Below, piece after piece: positions 7,387 to 39,827 of a stretch of DNA of 64,000 nucleotides. The stretch spans positions 128,001 to 192,000 of IMG/VR virus record IMGVR_UViG_3300031555_004524; one strand, written 5' to 3'. A model generated the notes under the pieces. That model did not search any database. It saw only the letters and a list, made by a program, of their open reading frames with translations, and was not told where the DNA came from. The translations under genes and the position numbers were made by a program. This DNA is from a virus (taxonomy: Duplodnaviria > Caudoviricetes). Numbering within the stretch: the first letter of the stretch is position 1; every line of letters starts with the position of its first letter.

Positions 7387-7842
7387 TCAAAATCGTTTTA
7401 TGAACTGGTCTGTTATACTGAGAAATAAAATAAATATAATATATAAAGACGTTATTATTCTCCATCTAGCAGAATAATTATTCAAAATCAAATATATCTG
7501 AAAGATAGCATGAAATATTGTGTATATTATTATAGTATAATTACTAATTCGTATGAATTTTCTTCTCATATTTAATATACTATCTAATTTTTCCACATTA
7601 TATGATTTTTGTTTATTCTTCAAATAATCTACATAAAAATGAGCTGCAAAGAAATTAGATATATTATATATAAAGATATATAATACTGATACTATTATAA
7701 AGAGATCAGTATATGCAATATGGGTCACATAATACGGAGACTCAATATATAATATACAATATATAAAAGATAATCCCAATGATATTAATATCATTGGGAT
7801 TTTTAGCTCCATTATTTTAATATAATATTTCTTATCATACAT
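7387..7842 (-). CDS. Multi-pass membrane protein
   Basis: About 4 hydrophobic segments; SD AAAGGGG before the ATG at 7842. Confidence 0.7.
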   Translation of the reverse strand: MYDKKYYIKIMELKIPMILISLGLSFIYCILYIESPYYVTHIAYTDLFIIVSVLYIFIYNISNFFAAHFYVDYLKNKQKSYNVEKLDSILNMRRKFIRISNYTIIIYTIFHAIFQIYLILNNYSARWRIITSLYIIFILFLSITDQFIKRF

Positions 7843-7855
7843 AACATTCACCCCT

Positions 7856-8218
7856 TTATAATAATAAAAATATAAATACTACTAATTCAAGAATATAGTA
7901 TATTGATAATAACAGATCATTATTAATAACATACATCAATGAGTTTGTAATAATACTAATTATCAGAAATATAAAACCGATATTTACACATATGGATTTT
8001 ATTCTCCGTCTTTTCTTTTCAGCCATATAATCTCTAATGTAATACCAAAAATTTTCATAAATATTATATACTATACTAGATATAGATATTATAATTATAA
8101 TAAAACTATTAGCCATATTGTAATAAGTATTCATATAAGGTGAAAATAAATTTGTAATATATAATAATAAAAAACTCGCACCTATTCTTTTAAGTATATT
8201 AATTAAATCTCTATACAT
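7856..8218 (-). CDS. Multi-pass membrane protein
   Basis: About 4 hydrophobic segments with a basic loop; SD GGAGG. Confidence 0.7.
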   Translation of the reverse strand: MYRDLINILKRIGASFLLLYITNLFSPYMNTYYNMANSFIIIIISISSIVYNIYENFWYYIRDYMAEKKRRRIKSICVNIGFIFLIISIITNSLMYVINNDLLLSIYYILELVVFIFLLL

Positions 8219-11553: not shown

Positions 11554-11590
11554 ATTTAATTTTACACCTCCTTGATTTTTGTTCATATAA

Positions 11591-11598
11591 ATAATATA
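11591..11598 (-). promoter_or_regulatory. Early-type phage promoter motif TATATTAT (representative copy)
   Basis: Intergenic copies at 1682, 7358, 11591, 11976, 12149, 15218, 20787, 28077, 38321, often followed by N3-4-TATGA. Resembles the phiKZ early consensus TATATTAC. Confidence 0.65.
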
Positions 11599-11625
11599 TG
11601 ATTATTTGGCTGTTTGGGAAAAAGT

Positions 11626-11662
11626 AAAAAAATAAAGGATTGTTGATCATCCTTTATTTTTT
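11626..11662 (-). terminator. Intrinsic terminator
   Basis: Stem aaaaaataaaggat/atcctttatttttt. Confidence 0.75.
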
Positions 11663-11692
11663 AGGGAATACTAGATCTGCATAGATCTAGTA

Positions 11693-11803
11693 TTAATTTG
11701 ATTTAAATTTAATAGTTGATGATCTTTTTGATATTTCGAGCATCATCCTTCTCAGAATATACCACGCTTTTATGAATGCAATTCTAACAGCTTTTATATA
11801 CAT
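11693..11803 (-). CDS. 36-aa basic peptide MYIKAVRIAFIKAWYILRRMMLEISKRSSTIKFKSN
   Basis: SD AAGGAG overlapping the upstream stop; inside a promoter-terminator cassette. Confidence 0.5.
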   Translation of the reverse strand: MYIKAVRIAFIKAWYILRRMMLEISKRSSTIKFKSN

Positions 11804-11816
11804 CTCATATATCTCC

Positions 11817-11930
11817 TTATTTTAAAAATCTTTTTAATTTACCATCTTCAATTTTAATTGATGGGTTGTATTGTGAGCTGAGTCTGTGACATTCAGTTGA
11901 TTTATTTAAAGTATTTAAAGTGTGTAACAT
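11817..11930 (-). CDS. 37-aa peptide MLHTLNTLNKSTECHRLSSQYNPSIKIEDGKLKRFLK
   Basis: SD AAAGGAG; directly after the early motif at 11976-11983. Confidence 0.55.
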   Translation of the reverse strand: MLHTLNTLNKSTECHRLSSQYNPSIKIEDGKLKRFLK

Positions 11931-11950
11931 TTTTTATCTCTCCTTTTTTA

Positions 11951-12160
11951 AATGTATCATATGTATTTCATAATAATAATATATCATTAATGATATCAAT
12001 ATTTACAATAATAATATTATTGTATCTTTAAAAATTTATTAAATTATTAGTAAAAAAATAAAGGACACGCTACCATCCTTTATTTTTTTATTTAAAATCC
12101 TCCCTTCTTTTTTATTTTTGTTGAATGTATTGTATGTATTTCATAATAATAATATATTAC
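11951..12160. repeat. Imperfect ~35-bp direct repeat containing the early promoter motif
   Basis: aatgtat..tatgtatttcataataataatatat at about 11951-11984 and 12124-12157. Confidence 0.7.
12052..12089 (-). terminator. Intrinsic terminator
   Basis: Stem aaaaaaataaagga/tcctttattttttt, near-identical to the one at 11626. Confidence 0.75.
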
Positions 12161-12203
12161 CAATAATAGTTATTTTTACAAAAAACAGAGTAGACTTTTT
12201 AGT

Positions 12204-19719: not shown

Positions 19720-20568
19720 TTAAATTGCAATTGGAATATTCTTAATTTGTGGTCCAGCTTCATAATTATCCAGTCTTACATCATCTGGTGTAAAGTCATA
19801 AAAATCTTTAATCTCAGGATTCAGCCAAAGTGTTGGCGCTGGAAGGGGCTCTCTACTGATTAATTCTTCAATTAAAGGAATATGTCTATCATATATATGA
19901 GCATCTGCTATTACATGCACAAACTCTCCAACTTGCATATCACATACTTGTGCTATCATATGTAACAATATTGCATATTGACATACATTCCAATTGTTAG
20001 CTGCAAGTACATCCTGTGAACGTTGATTTAAAATTCCATTTAATATAAGTTTATCACAATCTTTTTCTTTTGTTACATTGAATGTCATACTATATGCACA
20101 TGGATAAAGATTCATTTCATGAAGATCTTGATGTACATAGATATTTGTCATAATGCGACGACTATAAGGATTATTTTTGAGATCATATATAACTCTATCT
20201 ACTTGATCCATCATTCCTTCTTTATACTGATGCTTAATTCCAAGCTGATATCCATACGCTTTTCCAATAGAACCGTTTTCATCAGCCCAACTGTCCCAAA
20301 TATGTGGTTTTAAATCATGAATATTATTAGATTTCTTTTGCCAAATCCAAAGAATTTCATCAGTACAACTTTTTATACCAGTTTTTCTTAAAGTTAATGC
20401 TGGAAATTCTTTTCGTAAATCATAACGATTAACAACTCCAAATTTCTTAATAGTATAAGCTGGTGTTCCGTCTTCCCATTTTGGGCGCACCTTTTCACCT
20501 TCAGTGCTTGTGCCATTATCAATAATATCTCGACACATATTTATGAATACTTGATCTGCGTAACTCAT
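19720..20568 (-). CDS. thyA: Thymidylate synthase
   Basis: SRRI, LYPCAY (catalytic Cys), QRSQD, DAHIYDRH. Confidence 0.97.
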   Translation of the reverse strand: MSYADQVFINMCRDIIDNGTSTEGEKVRPKWEDGTPAYTIKKFGVVNRYDLRKEFPALTLRKTGIKSCTDEILWIWQKKSNNIHDLKPHIWDSWADENGSIGKAYGYQLGIKHQYKEGMMDQVDRVIYDLKNNPYSRRIMTNIYVHQDLHEMNLYPCAYSMTFNVTKEKDCDKLILNGILNQRSQDVLAANNWNVCQYAILLHMIAQVCDMQVGEFVHVIADAHIYDRHIPLIEELISREPLPAPTLWLNPEIKDFYDFTPDDVRLDNYEAGPQIKNIPIAI

Positions 20569-25312: not shown

Positions 25313-26266
25313 TTAATAACCTTCTTCTACATTAAAGAATTCATCATCATAATTATTAGGTCTAGAATTAACATATGATCTAAGAGATTTTTGATCTACA
25401 AATATAGGAATAATTTTAGTCAATATTTCATCTATAGTATGAGATATTGCATCATGTAATGAAGTAAGACAATCATTTACTATAGTTGTCATTATTTTCT
25501 CAACAGTTTCATATCCGATAATACCAATCATATTACATAATTTAATATGAATATTATCATATAATATAACAATTACTTTATTTGGAATTTCTATATGATA
25601 TCTTGTATATGTTTCAACCACATTATCCATACTTGAATTTTCTGGTATATTATATGCGTCTACTTCTCTATATACAGTCTGATATATAACTTGATATATA
25701 GATGAATTTGAACCTGATACGTTATATGAATCCTTTACAATATTACTAAGAAGATTTTGTGATAATGTAATCGTATCAAATTCTGGAAATTCTTTCTTAA
25801 TAATTTCAAACATGTAAGACATATAAGCTGTAATAAGATCCAGAACAATAGTAGCAATATATCCTCTAAATGTCTGATCATTAATATATACTTCTGCATT
25901 TATTTCATTTTTAAAAGTATGCTCAGATATAATACCAGTTCTAACCAAATCTAATAAGTCATAAATATAATTTTTACTAAAATCTCCTTTCTGAATTAAT
26001 AGATGATCATATACTGATAATGATTTACTATCACCAAATTCAATAACATTTTTATTTTTAGTAATACCTACTGGCTCATAATAAAACTCTTTATCACTTT
26101 TTGTAATTTTAGTCATATCAGTATTAGGTGTTATTGGAGTTGGAATAATTTCCTGCAAGGGTTCTAATTTTTTAAACAATTTAATCAATGCTTTAGAAGG
26201 TTTAGCAACTTCTTTTTCATTTTCCACTAAAACTGGGTATTCCTTTTTCATTTCTTTTTTCTTCAT
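25313..26266 (-). CDS. Hypothetical protein
   Basis: SD GAGG; late promoter at 26310-26321. Confidence 0.7.
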   Translation of the reverse strand: MKKKEMKKEYPVLVENEKEVAKPSKALIKLFKKLEPLQEIIPTPITPNTDMTKITKSDKEFYYEPVGITKNKNVIEFGDSKSLSVYDHLLIQKGDFSKNYIYDLLDLVRTGIISEHTFKNEINAEVYINDQTFRGYIATIVLDLITAYMSYMFEIIKKEFPEFDTITLSQNLLSNIVKDSYNVSGSNSSIYQVIYQTVYREVDAYNIPENSSMDNVVETYTRYHIEIPNKVIVILYDNIHIKLCNMIGIIGYETVEKIMTTIVNDCLTSLHDAISHTIDEILTKIIPIFVDQKSLRSYVNSRPNNYDDEFFNVEEGY

Positions 26267-28750: not shown

Positions 28751-28779
28751 ATATTATTGTTACATATAATGTAATTTTT

Positions 28780-30290: not shown

Positions 30291-31037
30291 ATGAAATTAA
30301 AAGATGATAAAACTACATATAGACCATATAATCGTAAATTTAAAGATCATAAATTAGAATGTATAGATAATATGGGAAATGGATCAAAATATTTATTTAG
30401 TGGAACTATAACTGGAGATACTGAAAATATAAGTGTGATGCTAACAAGTGGATATCCAGATTTTGGTGATGAATATACTAATAATTTTATCATATCTATT
30501 GATGATTTATTTAAATTGAAAGATATGATCATTTCAATAGAAGAAGAATATAATGATTATTTAACTTGTATATGTAATATAAATGATTGTTATACTGAAT
30601 TGCATAATTATATAAAATATGGTATAGTTGATCATATTGTATTGGAAAAATTGGATGGTTCTTATCCTAATTATCATGAAGAATTATATACAATATTTAA
30701 AATTACTCCTAAATTTATACCTGATTTATCTTCTAAAGATATAGATATTACTGTAAATATTGGATTTAATTTTATAGACTGTTTTCATATAATTCCAACT
30801 GATAAAAGTATAGGTGAATTTTTACGTAAAATAGTTGGAGAAGATGGTGGAGATATTAATATAAAATTTATAAATTATGATATATCTAAAGAAGCAGAAA
30901 AATATAAACAAAGAATGTTAAAAGAGTTAGATGAATATAATTCACACAAAAGAAGAATACCTACAGCAGAAGAAAGAAAAGAAATGGAAAAAATGTTACA
31001 TGATATGAGAAAAAAGACAAATAATAACCCAGTATAG
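30291..31037 (+). CDS. Hypothetical protein
   Basis: SD GAGAGG; late promoter variant AACT-N6-TA at 30254-30265. Confidence 0.7.
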   Translation: MKLKDDKTTYRPYNRKFKDHKLECIDNMGNGSKYLFSGTITGDTENISVMLTSGYPDFGDEYTNNFIISIDDLFKLKDMIISIEEEYNDYLTCICNINDCYTELHNYIKYGIVDHIVLEKLDGSYPNYHEELYTIFKITPKFIPDLSSKDIDITVNIGFNFIDCFHIIPTDKSIGEFLRKIVGEDGGDINIKFINYDISKEAEKYKQRMLKELDEYNSHKRRIPTAEERKEMEKMLHDMRKKTNNNPV

Positions 31038-31057
31038 TATTTTACTATACTGGGTTA
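31025..31057. terminator. Bidirectional terminator
   Basis: Stem taacccagtatagta/tactatactgggtta between convergent genes. Confidence 0.8.
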
Positions 31058-31060
31058 ATT

Positions 31061-32122
31061 TTATTCAAATTCTTCTTCAGATATTATTTCATCTATTTCA
31101 TCATAATAATCATCAGATTCAATATAATCATCTTCGTAGTATGAATTTTCTATATTTGAAGAATTATTATGATAATTTGAACCATCAAAATATTTATTAT
31201 AATTTTCATATATATTATATCCAGAAGTTCTAAATAAATTAAAATATCCTATTGTGTCATTATCTTTCATATGTATATTCATAGCCCAATTCCAAATATT
31301 ATCATAACTACAATGATACATACAATCATCTAATCTCATAGTCAATAATATTACACTTCCTGATATTGGATGATATATATAATTTGGTAAATTTTTTAAT
31401 TCTAAATAAGAACTATATGAATATAGCATTGTAATTGTTGATAAGTTCATTATTTCTATAATATTATCTTGTATTATTTCTCGTGGTATTTCTAGTAAAT
31501 TTTCAAATACAAATTCCATATGATCAAATTCTAAAATAGTTAAAACTGATGTTTCATGGTTATATCGTTTTAATGCTGTTTTATAATCTTTATATGGAGA
31601 TATATTTTTAATATATTTATCAGTTGCATCATAAAAATTATAATTATTTTCTATTGCAAAATCATTTTCTGATAATAAATTATATCTGATTAATAAATCC
31701 CAACCATCTGATGGTAAAGTAGTAATTAAATCAAATATTCTTGGTATAATATTATTGTCTGAATTTCTATATTTCAATATCAAATTTTCATAATCTATTA
31801 TTCTTCCAGATATATATAATCTAGTTGTATTGTATTGATCTAATATGGTCATATATCTAAAATTAATATTTGTTGATTTTAAGAATGAGATATGATTATG
31901 TACATATTCTCCATTTTCTAATGTAAATTCCATTACAATATTAGAAAATAATCTGCATAATTCACTAGTATCATACATAGTATATCTATTTGTATATATA
32001 ATTTGTGAATCTATAATATTGGAATATTCATTTGAATAGTTTGTTTCATAATCTTTTTTTCTAGTTAATTGATTAAATAATATTTGTATTTTTTTAAATA
32101 TTTTTATAAAGAATTGTTTCAT
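31061..32122 (-). CDS. Hypothetical protein, possibly degenerate ThyX-like fold
   Basis: SD AAGGAGG; weak motifs HETSVLTILEFDHMEFVFENL and TRLYISGRIIDY; no RHR motif. Confidence 0.5.
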   Translation of the reverse strand: MKQFFIKIFKKIQILFNQLTRKKDYETNYSNEYSNIIDSQIIYTNRYTMYDTSELCRLFSNIVMEFTLENGEYVHNHISFLKSTNINFRYMTILDQYNTTRLYISGRIIDYENLILKYRNSDNNIIPRIFDLITTLPSDGWDLLIRYNLLSENDFAIENNYNFYDATDKYIKNISPYKDYKTALKRYNHETSVLTILEFDHMEFVFENLLEIPREIIQDNIIEIMNLSTITMLYSYSSYLELKNLPNYIYHPISGSVILLTMRLDDCMYHCSYDNIWNWAMNIHMKDNDTIGYFNLFRTSGYNIYENYNKYFDGSNYHNNSSNIENSYYEDDYIESDDYYDEIDEIISEEEFE

Positions 32123-32179
32123 TATAATTCCTCCTTAAATTAGTATTATTAATTATATTTTTTAATATAAATATATTTT

Positions 32180-32401
32180 GACATGAGATATCCCAGTATA
32201 GATTTACTCTATACTGGGTTTCCGTTCTATCTCGTTTTCTACAACTGAAGTCCTGTACTACAAAATAGTTACAAAAATTAGTCCTTAGAATCTCATAAAT
32301 TCAAAACAAAAAAGAAAGAAAAATGAAAATCTATGACATACACACTGAACGAATTATTTTTAGCAAAATAATTATAACTACCACTTTATAATTATATGCT
32401 T
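32180..32401 (-). ncRNA. Predicted ~220-nt sRNA
   Basis: AACA-N6-TA at 32401-32412; 5' hairpin at +1; pyrimidine loop; 3' hairpin 32192-32218; no ORF. Confidence 0.6.
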
Positions 32402-32606
32402 ATTATCATGTTTAATAATTTAAAGATAATATTAAAAATACAAAAATAGCAGGTGTCAGGGGTTAAAAACCCCTGAACCCCCTTAGTCTTTGTTTTTATT
32501 TTTTATTTTTCTTGTTTTTTTAGTTTTTTGTTTTTTTTGTGTTTTAAAACGATGTGTTGTCTTCTGTAATTTTCTATTTGGAAATAAGTGGAAAAATAAT
32601 ATTAAT

Positions 32607-32645: not shown

Positions 32646-35600
32646 TTAATCAAATAAATTATCTTGATATTTAATTCCTAGAATATCTTTACAATGCCTA
32701 TCCAATTCCACAAGATATTTATATATAGATCCAACTACTAAAATTGAACATACTTTTCTTGCATTAATAGAAGCACAAGAAGTTACAGAATGAATTTTTT
32801 CATTTGGTCTATAATTTCCTCTAGGTTCATCTCCTTTAGGGAAGAATCCTTTAATAACACCTTTATTTGCAGAATAATAAATTAACTTATCGCCGACAGA
32901 CATCTTATCTTCATATTTAAGATAAATTTTTATAGCTACTCCATCACTAGCATTTTTCAATTCGCCTACAGGAGGTAATTTATCAGTAGCTCCTAAATGA
33001 AAATCTTTACCAGCAATGTTTAATTCATCCATTTCTTTCTTTCTTCTATTTATATTACGTTCATAATCATTAAATAATTTCTTTAATGATGGAGATAATT
33101 CATCTTTATCTACACAACGCAATAATTCTATATCTTGTACAACTCCAGTTACTTTAGATTTAATAGATCTTCTACCTAATTCGCTAATTTCATCTTCATC
33201 GTCGATGAGATTTCTTAATAAAATATTAGCATCTTCTTCGTCATATGGAGTTTGTATAGTTAATAATGTATCTCCTTCTTCTATTTTTTGTCCAACTTTT
33301 ACCATATTATAAATATTAGTATCTTTTGGAAGAATAATAGGATGATTTGGGCACATTAATATTACATCTGATGTCATAGCTTCAGATAAATCTTCTGATA
33401 TAATAGCGCTATCTTCAAATCCTTCATCAGTATTTAATATAGCTACTTTAGTAATAGTACCAATATTATATGCAATATTACCAGATTCGCCTAATTCATT
33501 AGAGAAAGATTCTTTATCATATGCTAAAATTTCTCCAGCTTTAAAAGTACTTCCTTCTTTTAAATCTGTATCTAATTTTAAAGTTACATAAAATCCACTA
33601 CTAGAGTTTTTCTCTACATTAGTAGATAAATCAATATAATCTTTAGTTCCATCTTTATATTCAACAATCATTCTTTCGTCATTTAAACTAATAACTTTAC
33701 CAGATTTATCTGCTTTTTTTGCAAAGATGTTTGAAATTAAATAAGGTAACGCCTCATCTGCTCCTGTAGTGATCAAACTAGGGTTAGCTCTTCTACTTCT
33801 CATGTAATGTTTTGAAGTTTGAACGTAAGTCATCGCTGTTCTGAAAGGATCGTCTCTAGTAGACCCATACGGTGTCAAAGCTTCAGTCATACACAAAGAT
33901 TTAGTAACAGACATTACATTTTCATCTAATTTATTTTTATTTGTAATATATCCTCTAACTGTAGATACATTAGCATCAATTGTAGCTTGTCTAGAAACAC
34001 CTACATTTCCAGCAAATCCAGTGGACATACCTAATACGCCAATCATTGATTCATCATATGAACGCTTGTCGAGTGTATATGATCTATCCGAGTTCATACC
34101 AGATGGACCTTTAGCAGTTACAATAGTATATGCTTCATATTCAGATAAAGCATTGATAATAGACTTATCACTGGTAGTGGAGTTTAATAATACTTCATCA
34201 ATCAATGCAGATTGTTTTACTGAAAACATACCACTTCTACCATGTTTCATCTGAGTAGAATATTGACCATAAGCTCTAGCCATCACAGTATAAAGCATAG
34301 CTGGTATTTGTTCATTTCTACGAATACGTCTATTATCAGTAAGATTAGTATGCTTGATAAATTTATTATCAGCTAATAATCTATTTGCATATAATAATAT
34401 TTCAATATAATCTGTAGGAAGTTTATAATATTTTAAAGTTTCTACAGTAATAGGTTTATCTACCATTAAATTATAGAAGTTGTCTAAACCATCTGCTTTT
34501 ATTCTTCCACCAAAATCATCTAAGAAATCTAAATACATAGATTTACTATTCATATCTCCTATAGAATAACTTGCAGTGTCACAAGCTTTTAATCCATTCA
34601 ATAATAATGATGATGCATAATCTAAGTCATATATTAAATATGCATCTTTAAAACGAATGAAATCTTGTGTATTCAAATCTATACCTTTTTTATTATCAGC
34701 TATAGTGTAATTAATGCCAGCTTTATCTAAAGTTTTCTTTAATCCTTCACTGTATGCGCATATAACTATTACTGGTATTTCTGTATTAAGAATACTAGCT
34801 TTTGAATATGTGTATCTAATAGAAGGAGTTGCTTTTTCATATAATTGAGTAAAGTTTTCCTTAGAAAGTTCTTTATCTACCCCTAATAATAAAGCTAACC
34901 AATAAGCAAATGATACAAATTTACCATCTATTGTGGCTTCGCTATCATAATATAATATTTCTTTTGATTTATTTACTACTGCATATGGAATACCTTTACC
35001 CTCGTCAATCTTATCTCCATATAAATTTCGTAATTCTTCCTGATTAAAATATACTGTATAATCAGGTGTAATAAATTTATTATATATTGTAGCTAAATCT
35101 ACATAATCTATCGGTAATTCATAACGAGAACAAATCTTGCTATTATCACCTTCAACTATCTTAAGATTTTTAAATTTATGCTTTGTGATTGTTTTAATTA
35201 ATCTATCACAAGGTCCAATAGATTTACCACTTGTAGTACCAAATCTTCTAATAAATATTTTATTATAATTGGATACAATCTGTACAGTATCTTCACCAGT
35301 TTTAATAATAGGCATGAGGAATAATTGGCTAGAAATATCTTTTCTATTTCCTCTAAGTTTCATATATTTATTATCAATAAATAATGGAACGTCGAGTTTA
35401 ATAGTATATCTCTTACCATTTATATCTTCATATTTAACAGTATAAGTTTCAATTATATCCTCACTTGTAGACGTATCTTCAGCTTCAATGCTAATTACAC
35501 TTAATGGAGGATTCATATCTGCAAAAGAGTTAAATATTTTAACTATATCTTCATCTGGATTATATTGATCGAAAGAACTACAATAAGTAAGATGATTCCA

Positions 35601-37586
35601 TTCATCATTTACTGTAGCAACGTTTAATTTAACTTCTTTTAATGGTTCTTGAGATTTAGAATTATCTTCAGCTAATAATTCTTTTAAAGGTTTTCCTTTA
35701 AATTCTTTTTCCATTAAATCATTTTGAAGTTTAACCATTCTAGATGCTCTAGCTGCACTAATATTAGATTTATCATCTGGATCTTCTGCTAAGTCAGCTA
35801 AAATTTGTTTTAATTTTTCATCATTATCCAGCGTATCCAAAGTATCATCTACAGTAGTACTTATAGCTGCAGCTTTAGCAACTTTACTTACAATTTCATC
35901 CTTATTTTCTTTATTCTTATCAGTACCTTCATTTTTATCTTCTTTATCCTTTGTATCTGTTTTAACTTTATTTGATTTTGTTTCTGTATTATCATCTTTT
36001 TTAGCAGAGATGTCATCTATAGTAACACCTTGAGATTTTTCAACTTTATCTACAATATCAACAGTGATAGCTTTTGCTGATATCTGTCTATCTAAAGTTT
36101 CATCTTCTGGCACATATTTTTTATCTCTGAGTAATTTAATATTTCTAATAAATAACTGATTTACAGATTTCATATCAACTGTACTGAAATTTATTTTGAA
36201 ATATCCATTTGCGCCCATAAATAAAAATGTAATATCGCCAAATAAAGTTTTCATTTTAGCTGGATTTTTATATAATGTCTGATAAATACAAGAAATTGGA
36301 TTAATTCCATTCTGAATCATCCATAACTTACTTTCTTTACCATTCATATCCCAATCGATAATAGGAATAATAACAGTTTTTACGTTATATCCATTAGCTT
36401 TTAATCGTTTATCATTAATAAGTCTATCCATTAAATCAAGGTAAATTTCATATCCTCTATTTAATTTATAGGTATTATTTCTAATAAAACTTTCATTATA
36501 TCTACTGAAATCTATGAAGAGATTTAATCCTTTATACATTTCAAGCTTATTGTAAGTATATTTAATAAAATCATTTTCTTCTTTTACTTTTTCATATATA
36601 TCTTGCATTTCTTTAAGATTTTTTATACGATCATTATACAGTAATTTTTTAATTACAGTATTATTTGTATCATTTCCCTCTTGAAATACAAATAAACAAG
36701 ATTCACCAATCTGTAAAATAGAATCATTTTTAAAGTAATCGGATTTGTAATTTTCAGTTACAATTGTAGAAGTTTCTTCTAAAAATCCAAATACTTTTGA
36801 AATTGTTGCACTAATCATAGTACCAACTACATATTCAGCAGAGAATAAATCATTGATTTGACCTTTTCTTACAATTGATGCAAATTTTTTATGACCATGT
36901 TTTTCAATATAATTATCGATTCTTATACATAATCTCTGCAATTCATCAGAGAATATCCAATTATTTTTATGAATAAAATATAAATCGCTTTCATATAAAG
37001 AGATTGCATATTTAAGTTCATTAGGTATATTGAATTTAGAATTCATTAATAAAAATTCCATAGCACAATATCTAAGATATGCTCCATAATTTTTGAGATT
37101 CTTATTAAATGCTGATTTACTAGCGACATTTATTGTTGTTTTTGTAGTATGAGGGATAGAATATTTTCTAAATACTTCTACGCTAATTGGATAATCAATA
37201 TCTATATTATAATCTTTATTAAGACTATCTATAGTAGAGATATTTAAAAACTTCATAACTTCAAAAGTATCAGATTCATATCCAGAATACAACATAGTTC
37301 TATTATTATCTCTACTAATAATATCATTTATATTTTCCAATACAGGTTCAGCTGATTCTTCTATAATAGTAGAACCATTCACATAATATAATGCAGCACG
37401 TTCAATGTAATATGAATTAAAATATTTATTTACGAATAATGGATGTGTCATCATTCGTTTTGATGATTCATATGACGGAGTCAATAACATAGCTACACTA
37501 TTTTTTCTTTTATTTTTATCATTAATAGGTAATAAAAATTTCTTACGATAGATTTTTATATCCTGTAATTCGTCAAGAAAAAACAT
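32646..37586 (-). CDS. rpoB: RNA polymerase beta subunit with long N-terminal extension (probably virion RNAP)
   Basis: KGPSG, TPYGSTRDDPFRTAMTYVQ, GFEDSAIIS, GDKL...NKGVI, SINARK; late promoter at 37609-37620. Confidence 0.9.
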   Translation of the reverse strand: MFFLDELQDIKIYRKKFLLPINDKNKRKNSVAMLLTPSYESSKRMMTHPLFVNKYFNSYYIERAALYYVNGSTIIEESAEPVLENINDIISRDNNRTMLYSGYESDTFEVMKFLNISTIDSLNKDYNIDIDYPISVEVFRKYSIPHTTKTTINVASKSAFNKNLKNYGAYLRYCAMEFLLMNSKFNIPNELKYAISLYESDLYFIHKNNWIFSDELQRLCIRIDNYIEKHGHKKFASIVRKGQINDLFSAEYVVGTMISATISKVFGFLEETSTIVTENYKSDYFKNDSILQIGESCLFVFQEGNDTNNTVIKKLLYNDRIKNLKEMQDIYEKVKEENDFIKYTYNKLEMYKGLNLFIDFSRYNESFIRNNTYKLNRGYEIYLDLMDRLINDKRLKANGYNVKTVIIPIIDWDMNGKESKLWMIQNGINPISCIYQTLYKNPAKMKTLFGDITFLFMGANGYFKINFSTVDMKSVNQLFIRNIKLLRDKKYVPEDETLDRQISAKAITVDIVDKVEKSQGVTIDDISAKKDDNTETKSNKVKTDTKDKEDKNEGTDKNKENKDEIVSKVAKAAAISTTVDDTLDTLDNDEKLKQILADLAEDPDDKSNISAARASRMVKLQNDLMEKEFKGKPLKELLAEDNSKSQEPLKEVKLNVATVNDEWNHLTYCSSFDQYNPDEDIVKIFNSFADMNPPLSVISIEAEDTSTSEDIIETYTVKYEDINGKRYTIKLDVPLFIDNKYMKLRGNRKDISSQLFLMPIIKTGEDTVQIVSNYNKIFIRRFGTTSGKSIGPCDRLIKTITKHKFKNLKIVEGDNSKICSRYELPIDYVDLATIYNKFITPDYTVYFNQEELRNLYGDKIDEGKGIPYAVVNKSKEILYYDSEATIDGKFVSFAYWLALLLGVDKELSKENFTQLYEKATPSIRYTYSKASILNTEIPVIVICAYSEGLKKTLDKAGINYTIADNKKGIDLNTQDFIRFKDAYLIYDLDYASSLLLNGLKACDTASYSIGDMNSKSMYLDFLDDFGGRIKADGLDNFYNLMVDKPITVETLKYYKLPTDYIEILLYANRLLADNKFIKHTNLTDNRRIRRNEQIPAMLYTVMARAYGQYSTQMKHGRSGMFSVKQSALIDEVLLNSTTSDKSIINALSEYEAYTIVTAKGPSGMNSDRSYTLDKRSYDESMIGVLGMSTGFAGNVGVSRQATIDANVSTVRGYITNKNKLDENVMSVTKSLCMTEALTPYGSTRDDPFRTAMTYVQTSKHYMRSRRANPSLITTGADEALPYLISNIFAKKADKSGKVISLNDERMIVEYKDGTKDYIDLSTNVEKNSSSGFYVTLKLDTDLKEGSTFKAGEILAYDKESFSNELGESGNIAYNIGTITKVAILNTDEGFEDSAIISEDLSEAMTSDVILMCPNHPIILPKDTNIYNMVKVGQKIEEGDTLLTIQTPYDEEDANILLRNLIDDEDEISELGRRSIKSKVTGVVQDIELLRCVDKDELSPSLKKLFNDYERNINRRKKEMDELNIAGKDFHLGATDKLPPVGELKNASDGVAIKIYLKYEDKMSVGDKLIYYSANKGVIKGFFPKGDEPRGNYRPNEKIHSVTSCASINARKVCSILVVGSIYKYLVELDRHCKDILGIKYQDNLFD

Positions 37587-38584: not shown

Positions 38585-39110
38585 AGTTGAAGATTTATTG
38601 AAAGATATTCAAGAAAATTTGAAACATAAAAATTCATCTAAAGAGGATGAAGTTGCTATTATGCAAGCCATGGTTAACGATACTTCATTTGTAGTTGGAG
38701 TATATGGTAAAAATGGAAGAGAAGGAGAATACTGTCCAGCTGCAGATTTTAAGAAAATGGCTTCTTCTATTATTTCATCTGCAACCAAAATTAGCAGAGA
38801 AGAAGCATCTTCAATTATTGCAGATTATGATATTACTAAAACTGAAGCTGAAGCTTTAGTTGGAATATCTAAACAATTTATCAATACATACTTAGAAACT
38901 GGACGAAAACTTCCTTTAGGTTGTAGGGAAGAAACAAACTTCCAGTTATGTAGAAAAGTTGTAAATGAAAGAGTTAGACCTTGCCCTAAAAAGATTGGTG
39001 TAAATGAAGAAGGAAAAGGTATTTATGAAATGATACCTACAATAACACCAAAACATATTGGTTTGAAAGTATATACTGCAATGCCAGATATGCCTGAGGA
39101 GGAAGAATAG
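38568..39110 (+). CDS. Hypothetical protein
   Basis: SD AGGAGG; lies within the operon. Confidence 0.7.
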   Translation: MEMGTKVEDLLKDIQENLKHKNSSKEDEVAIMQAMVNDTSFVVGVYGKNGREGEYCPAADFKKMASSIISSATKISREEASSIIADYDITKTEAEALVGISKQFINTYLETGRKLPLGCREETNFQLCRKVVNERVRPCPKKIGVNEEGKGIYEMIPTITPKHIGLKVYTAMPDMPEEEE

Positions 39111-39113
39111 TAT

Positions 39114-39827
39114 ATGGAATATAAAGTTATAACTTTATGTGGAAGTACAAAATTTAAAGACGATTTTATAAGAGTGCAGAAAGAATTAACTCTTAAAGGC
39201 AATATTGTTATTTCTGTTGGGTTATTTGGGCATTCTGGAGATAATGAAGCTTGGCAAAATGATGGTAAAATAAAAACAATGTTAGATGATATACATAAAA
39301 GAAAAATTGACATGTCTGATGAGATATATGTCATAAATAAAAATGGGTATATCGGAGAAAGTACACGATTGGAGATAGAATATGCTAAATCTAAAGGACT
39401 TAAAATAAATTATATGGAAGAACCAAATTCTTGCGGTGAGATGGAAGTTGGACGTTGCGAATGTTGTGGTAGAGAAAATGTTCCTTTATCTAGAAAATAT
39501 TATCATTATAATAATATAAAATGCGAATGTCATTCACCTAATCATTTTATCTTGATTAGACATTGTAATGATTGTGAGCCTAAAGAACCTATATATACTA
39601 AAGTTGAGTATAGAACAGAAGATCTACATACTCCAGAAATTATTGCTAGTAATATATTACAGAAATTATATTGCGAGAATAGTTACAATCCAGATTTAGC
39701 AGATGAAATAACAAGTAAGGTTTATGATAAACTAATGGCATATTTTGTGCATCATGAAGTGTTTACAGATAAACCATATAGAGTATTTATACAAGAATTA
39801 ATAAATATAATTATACTAGCTAAATAA
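39114..39827 (+). CDS. Nucleoside deoxyribosyltransferase-like (DUF4406-like) domain fused to a Cys/His-rich domain
   Basis: VITLCGS...HKRKIDMSDEIYVIN...GYIGESTRLEIEYA, then CECCG...CECH...HCNDC. Confidence 0.6.
   Translation: MEYKVITLCGSTKFKDDFIRVQKELTLKGNIVISVGLFGHSGDNEAWQNDGKIKTMLDDIHKRKIDMSDEIYVINKNGYIGESTRLEIEYAKSKGLKINYMEEPNSCGEMEVGRCECCGRENVPLSRKYYHYNNIKCECHSPNHFILIRHCNDCEPKEPIYTKVEYRTEDLHTPEIIASNILQKLYCENSYNPDLADEITSKVYDKLMAYFVHHEVFTDKPYRVFIQELINIIILAK

Follow-up and report, generated by a model that had tools for sequence, protein, structure and literature searches.

The locus and its setting

The window analysed here is a 64,000-nt stretch, bases 128001-192000 of a 248,149-bp contig from an uncultured, 248-kb AR9-like jumbo phage; coordinates are in window numbering unless prefixed G000, which marks positions in the same phage genome. 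The window encodes beta subunits of multisubunit RNA polymerases, and by these the closest cultured relatives are the Staphylococcus SA1-like phages, phiR1-37, PBS1 and AR9, at ~32-34% identity. Because the phage's thymidylate synthase shares 80-88% identity with enzymes of mainly Lachnospiraceae origin and the phage DNA is found in animal faeces, the host is probably a member of the gut Lachnospiraceae. The thymidylate synthase gene itself (19720-20568, minus strand), 88% identical to Lachnospiraceae enzymes, looks to have been taken from a host recently, and it points to DNA containing thymine even though the phage's promoters are of the type that AR9 reads on a uracil template.

The virion RNA polymerase beta gene ends at 32646 and a 353-aa gene starts at 32122, and the 523-nt gap between them holds a minus-strand unit of ~215 nt made up of a 5' hairpin, a pyrimidine-rich open stretch and a GC-rich 3' hairpin (Table 1). 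ORFs overlapping the unit are only 12-22 aa long and none has an SD-like word, so that the unit combines a promoter of its own with the lack of a credible ORF, as an sRNA should. A type I toxin-antitoxin RNA was considered and rejected, as the 22-aa plus-strand ORF at 32323 has no SD and does not form a hydrophobic helix. The unit had no match in Rfam, the LhrC, csRNA and c4 covariance models included, no DNA match in annotated phages and no match in motif scans of IMG/VR. An independent read set covers 31950-32478 without differences, at the level of DNA and possibly from the source sample itself.

Table 1. Features at and around the late unit, in window coordinates
Feature	Position	Strand	Remarks
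Virion RNA polymerase beta subunit gene	32646..37586	-	Terminator hairpin at 32643-32607
Second ORF-less, late-promoter-like unit, upstream	32440..32556	-	A-rich single strand and G-run hairpin with T tail
Late (non-virion RNAP) promoter, AACA-N6-TA	32401..32412	-	Predicted +1 at 32401; AR9 consensus; 9 aligned loci
5' hairpin	32362..32400	-	Begins at +2; pair probability 0.87-0.96
Middle stem with 26-nt pyrimidine-rich loop (32327-32302), putative anti-RBS seed	32291..32336	-	Ensemble folding
Extra helical domain	32230..32290	-	Without counterpart in the two nearest relatives, both shorter
3' domain with 11-bp GC-closed hairpin (32218-32192)	32185..32233	-	Probable 3' end; near-copy of terminator 31025-31057
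12-nt motif, probable own promoter element of gene 32122	32147..32158	-	Genome copies before starts
353-aa gene (gene 32122), no functional match	31061..32122	-	Clade-specific family always following the unit; 24 homologues by profile

The promoter is of the kind used by the late genes of this genome (AACA-N6-TA/G), which places the unit among AR9-type late transcription units. Genome-wide, the refined form AACAT-N5-TAA occurs 40 times, and 28 of these copies sit 20-65 nt before a start codon (0.9 expected); this is the AR9 late consensus (PMC5312081). Both promoter classes defined in AR9, early and late, are recognisable in the window phage (PMC5312081), the early form RTATATTAT-N6-G lying within 130 nt of a start in 26 of 44 copies, while sigma-70 promoters occur at chance level only. 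Late promoters with the first A replaced, (C/G/T)ACAT-N5-TAA, also precede starts by 20-65 nt (16 of 31 copies, 0.7 expected) and often overlap a terminator tail, for example upstream of 4303, 13425 and 18428; they amount to a wider late consensus than that reported for AR9. Elsewhere in the window, a 617-nt gap at 11587-12203 (minus strand) carries two tandem early-promoter blocks (a 68-nt repeat, 81% identical), repeated hairpins and only tiny ORFs.

Predicted structure and the 3' end

An earlier note, written from the sequence alone, had described this stretch as a late sRNA with an exact late promoter, a 5' hairpin, a stem closing a loop of about 25 nt with an exposed anti-RBS/AUG face, and a 3' hairpin related to one unit of an array elsewhere in the window. 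Every sequence it listed is present on the minus strand where it was placed, the promoter matches the AR9 late consensus, and the 5' hairpin is well supported by its pair probabilities. The 3' hairpin pairs with a probability of about 1.0, and its domain may be extended by an outer helix (32233-32228 with 32190-32185). The whole unit folds with z = -3.2 against shuffles, and with z = -1.8 once the 3' hairpin is removed.

The middle of the unit is less settled. The loop is indeed 26 nt, but the register proposed for its stem (32336-32328 with 32301-32293), in which UUCA can pair with UGAA, reaches a probability of only 0.3-0.4, whereas a rival register that pairs UUUCAU with an internal AUGAGA reaches about 0.55. 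Accordingly, the claim of an exposed loop holds for its U-rich part, which is mostly open (unpaired probability 0.5-1.0), but not for the anti-AUG bases, mostly paired in the model (CAU at 32325-32323, unpaired probability 0.3-0.5). Nor is an exposed anti-AUG a conserved feature, as CAU is missing from the two nearest relatives.

At the 3' end, the hairpin lacks the direct U-run found in 56 of 69 gene-end hairpins of this genome, and read-through is therefore possible; a delayed U-run follows the hairpin in most relatives. An 18-nt hairpin-plus-tail motif (17 fixed bases) occurs in the genome only here and in unit 4 of the array, the unit starting at 28761, and to this extent the proposed relationship is borne out. 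Whole-unit similarity to unit 4 is not significant, however (p = 0.07), and the core of the hairpin finds a better match in the ordinary gene-end terminator at 31025-31057 than in unit 4 (0 of 300 shuffles as good). Being the closer copy of a gene-end terminator, the hairpin represents a general type of this phage and is not a marker of an RNA class.

Conservation of the unit in related phages

Through the polymerase and the neighbour protein we reached ten distinct related loci (L001, L243, L002, L004, L245, L005, L141, L142, which is the same as L062, L143 and L144), with a 70-78% identical RNA polymerase or a homologous neighbour gene, that of L005 being cut by the contig end. All ten have, at the same place, a late promoter, a 5' hairpin, a middle region and a GC-rich hairpin, followed by a homologue of gene 32122. 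In eight loci the promoter coincides with the polymerase stop codon or is no more than about 15 nt away from it, and across the nine that were aligned it is invariant. It alone is invariant, the sequence of the unit being largely replaced among relatives. The 5' hairpin differs in sequence from relative to relative, with compensatory changes within the L004 group. When the helices of L004, L245, L142 and L144 are compared, 93% of cells are paired with 7 two-sided changes, against 34-59% in slid controls, in a test that has four sequences only and a structure derived from these same sequences. A sequence-only profile built from the relatives did not recover the window unit, and its homology therefore rests on position, architecture and a three-way alignment with L001 and L243.

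Beyond this group the arrangement fades. In most of the distant phages the stretch after the virion beta gene holds a terminator only, and in five more distant phage records the family of gene 32122 is absent. The distant phages L023, L040, L051 and L059 differ in that their virion beta gene is followed by a late promoter and by non-coding sequence that ends in a hairpin and bears no obvious likeness to the window unit; in L039 and L041 the terminator after the beta gene is followed by a tRNA-like sequence.

The separate late unit that the earlier note had placed outside the array thus stands: it has no ORF, is structured, lies outside 28.1-28.9 kb and is kept in ten relatives. In another reading the unit has no role as RNA and is a by-product, namely a lengthened terminator region of the polymerase gene in which a promoter was left over. 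In favour are the terminator found after the polymerase gene in most of the distant relatives, the close likeness of the 3' hairpin to a local terminator and the modest fold without it (z = -1.8), but this reading is very improbable given the invariant promoter, a 5' hairpin rebuilt in many sequences, the compensatory changes, a seed identical at 30 of 30 positions in two sister loci (below) and the hairpin that the window's polymerase gene already has at 32643-32607.

Conservation is sharpest in the middle region. Between the sister loci L004 and L245 the 30-nt seed, which reads as anti-AUG and then anti-SD, is unchanged (30/30), while the flanks match at 57/68, 30/44 and 50/67 positions (84%, 68% and 75%). 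Eight of nine loci tested have a pyrimidine tract (at least 15 of 20), and five of nine have the anti-SD word UUCCU in the middle region. A conserved, putatively single-stranded seed is seen in L004, L245, L142 and L144; the window, L001 and L243 keep only U-richness. L001 and L243 retain the U-rich tract with no closing stem, and the window loop has no CCU, only its wobble version.

A leader of the neighbouring gene?

The earlier note had named one finding that would undo its reading, namely that the transcript is only the 5' leader of gene 32122 and has no stable short form. Such a structured late leader or attenuator would work by read-through of the hairpin, with the pyrimidine tract controlling the gene's own RBS in cis. 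The protein found no match in Pfam, PHROG or the Atlas. In every case the unit lies ahead of a member of this gene family, the hairpin and the ATG being 56-69 nt apart where measured, and it stays with the gene when others insert after the polymerase gene (L001, L243). The weak tail of the window hairpin, with no direct U-run, would suit read-through, and late leaders of 200-263 nt are among the AR9 transcripts in the published tables (PMC5312081). Pairing of the middle region with the start of its own gene is also strong in L002, L004 and L142 (family permutation p = 0.04-0.09).

Several observations weigh against a leader. In the window, own-gene pairing is poor, ranking 8-9 of 9-10 loci and 123rd-230th of 238 phage start regions, and anti-RBS pairing with the gene is not kept across relatives. 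L245 retains the seed while pairing with its neighbour's start falls from -24.3 (L004) to -13.0 kcal/mol, which favours a partner elsewhere for the seed. The U-run after the hairpin in most relatives favours termination. In seven of the ten relatives a late-promoter match, (C/T)ACAT/G-N5-TAA, lies between hairpin and gene, and in the window the gene is preceded by a 12-nt motif, three of whose four genome copies sit 32-36 nt before a start codon (0.1 expected), the other start-proximal copies preceding thyA (20568) and guanylate kinase (12818). With promoter-like motifs of its own here and in relatives, the gene would not need the upstream promoter. This, together with a seed kept while the gene's start region drifts, makes a plain leader role unlikely, though the constant linkage to the gene, the weak tail and the long AR9 leaders leave it some probability. 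The 12-nt motif (32158, 20600 and 12852, minus strand) fits neither the early nor the late consensus and may represent a third promoter class.

Searches for a target

Among 238 phage start regions the best partner of the loop is G000 39052-39432, a gene in an early-promoter run (-25.2 kcal/mol, p = 0.08), and several genes with AAAGGAGAGAAAA leaders rank high; shuffled loops pair as well in 8-10% of cases. The middle region of the window pairs with phage start regions better than its shuffles do (z = -5.0; core alone, p = 0.03). Across the family, sequence order beyond dinucleotide composition was not significant for start-region pairing (Stouffer z = -0.75). An exact-complement search in the phage gave a longest loop match of 15 nt, which is not at a called start. 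Against strict complement patterns for the host, 151 genomes of the likely host family yielded one low-complexity match in one search and none in another, and five other genomes yielded none; shorter pairings fall outside these patterns. The complementary leaders expected in phage and host have thus not materialised, with none in the phage above chance and none near-perfect in the 151 genomes.

Individual candidates fared no better. The start region of G000 110515-111357 ranked first across homologous cores, and it was dropped after a prediction written beforehand for the orthologue in the L002 genome failed and its orthologues proved to have only a generic strong SD in common. That gene (L230) encodes a conserved 280-aa protein with four invariant Cys/His positions, a possible Zn site, and a Q/P-rich low-complexity tail. 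It has early and late promoter motifs upstream in this genome and the early motif in relatives, and in L232 it lies upstream of gyrB. G000 39052-39432, 235605-236120 and 93319-93576 pair well, though for the window RNA not above shuffles (p = 0.08-0.25); the L004 RNA does beat shuffles on G000 93319 (0 of 20 as good), in a pairing across genomes and not within L004's own. Shut-off of early genes as a class was also rejected, since early and late genes show no pairing bias (p = 0.95).

Other late units without ORFs

Apart from the array of five late units at 28.1-28.9 kb, ORF-less stretches lie behind late promoters at G000 25382(-), 34954(-), 49835(+) and 119054(-) and at window 39826(+) and 32556(-). 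The notion that one RNA class is dispersed across the genome gains from these additional units, but their likeness is one of architecture more than of sequence. Array unit 4 is co-linear in layout and contains a similar seed whose anti-SD is perfect, and the long RNA predicted at 39826 aligns to the unit better than all 300 shuffles. The four G000 units contain hairpins, and that at 25382(-) ends in a CCCAG hairpin with a tail like that of the 32401 unit.

The upstream unit at 32556-32440 has a counterpart only in the nearest relatives, L001 (~7735-7950) and L243 (~2558-2770). Its G-run hairpin occurs nowhere else in the genome and is confined to the three nearest phages, and between L001 and L243 the 5' part of this upstream unit shows better conservation than the sRNA unit. 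It could be another RNA or a replication-origin element. Sponge pairing between it and the sRNA unit was rejected at only -12.8 kcal/mol.

Interpretation

The unit is a real, conserved non-coding element, with a promoter match, hairpins, no credible ORF, conservation of position and structure, and a conserved seed in a sister lineage. That it gives rise to a discrete RNA is likely. Our preferred reading, to which we assign a probability of roughly 0.55, is a late trans-acting sRNA that masks ribosome-binding sites. From the sequence features above we infer its transcription, termination, pairing, repression and targets as follows. The phage's non-virion RNA polymerase would start at 32401 and mostly stop at the 3' hairpin, producing a ~215-nt RNA protected by hairpins at both ends. 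The U/C-rich open stretch would pair in trans, G-U wobbles included, with purine-rich ribosome-binding sites, and this toehold pairing could free the sequestered UUUCAU to cover the start codon. Late in infection, a small number of phage or host mRNAs would thereby be translated less.

It is conceivable that a real small RNA acts here by binding protein and not by pairing. Its open U-rich strand would then be a scaffold or decoy, with ribosomal protein S1, a host RNA chaperone, an anti-phage toxin or nuclease, or a phage protein among the possible partners. The window's own branch keeps U-richness and neither order nor anti-AUG, the searches found no target, and protected ends would suit a stable decoy. 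Yet in the invariant 30-nt seed of L004 and L245 anti-AUG and anti-SD stand in the expected order and at the expected spacing, a similar seed in array unit 4 has a perfect anti-SD, and the unit has neither repeats like those of type III antitoxins or CRISPR mimics nor an Rfam match, and we regard a protein decoy as rather doubtful.

The trans-acting sRNA may also belong to something larger. AR9-like jumbo phages could carry, scattered over the genome, a set of at least six to ten divergent late RNAs whose anti-RBS or anti-start seeds all differ. Jointly these would form an RNA-based translation switch that shuts classes of host or early phage ribosome-binding sites late in infection, the window unit being tuned to A-rich leaders of the AAAGGAGAGAAAA type; we offer this as a speculative extension, with the odds well against it. 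If late RNAs with covarying helices and a constrained anti-RBS seed do form a conserved family, they would add a post-transcriptional layer to the jumbo-phage infection programme. Taken alone, the window unit is one more conserved member and not a mechanism.

Comparison with known systems

For jumbo phages that encode RNA polymerases of their own, the literature found describes no firmly established regulatory small RNA; a study of early phiKZ infection confirmed none and left late ones open (PMC8244752). LhrC1-5, the multicopy sRNAs of Listeria monocytogenes, offer one parallel, with a Firmicute setting and several sRNA genes (PMC4132741). Their CU-rich single-stranded sites block translation and their structure rearranges on binding (PMC4132741), as proposed here for the window unit. 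However, LhrC copies are near-identical, chromosomal and LisRK-induced, whereas the window units are divergent, phage-encoded and read from a phage polymerase promoter, and the unit has no sequence or Rfam match to LhrC.

A second parallel is the c4 antisense RNA of phages P1 and P7, a structured RNA whose exposed loops act in trans on ribosome-binding sites (review PMC12197685). The window unit would likewise give a phage-encoded structured RNA, and such action in trans is what we propose for it, but c4 is an immunity repressor of temperate phages with defined targets, whereas the unit is a late element of an AR9-like jumbo phage with no defined target. The c4 RNA has an Rfam family, while the unit gave no Rfam hit.

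The closest experimental parallel is in AR9 itself. A late 'antisense' start at 75478(-) was seen experimentally as very strong, with a step height of 3757, the highest among the Table S3 rows examined (PMC5312081), and the RNA from this start opens with the anti-SD word CCUCCU followed by a long hairpin. It shares its promoter class with the window unit but comes from another locus, overlapping g090 near the non-virion beta gene; in AR9 the virion beta gene is followed by a homing endonuclease gene and not by such a unit. The 75478(-) transcript has never been described as a regulator, and it makes the idea testable in a cultured phage.
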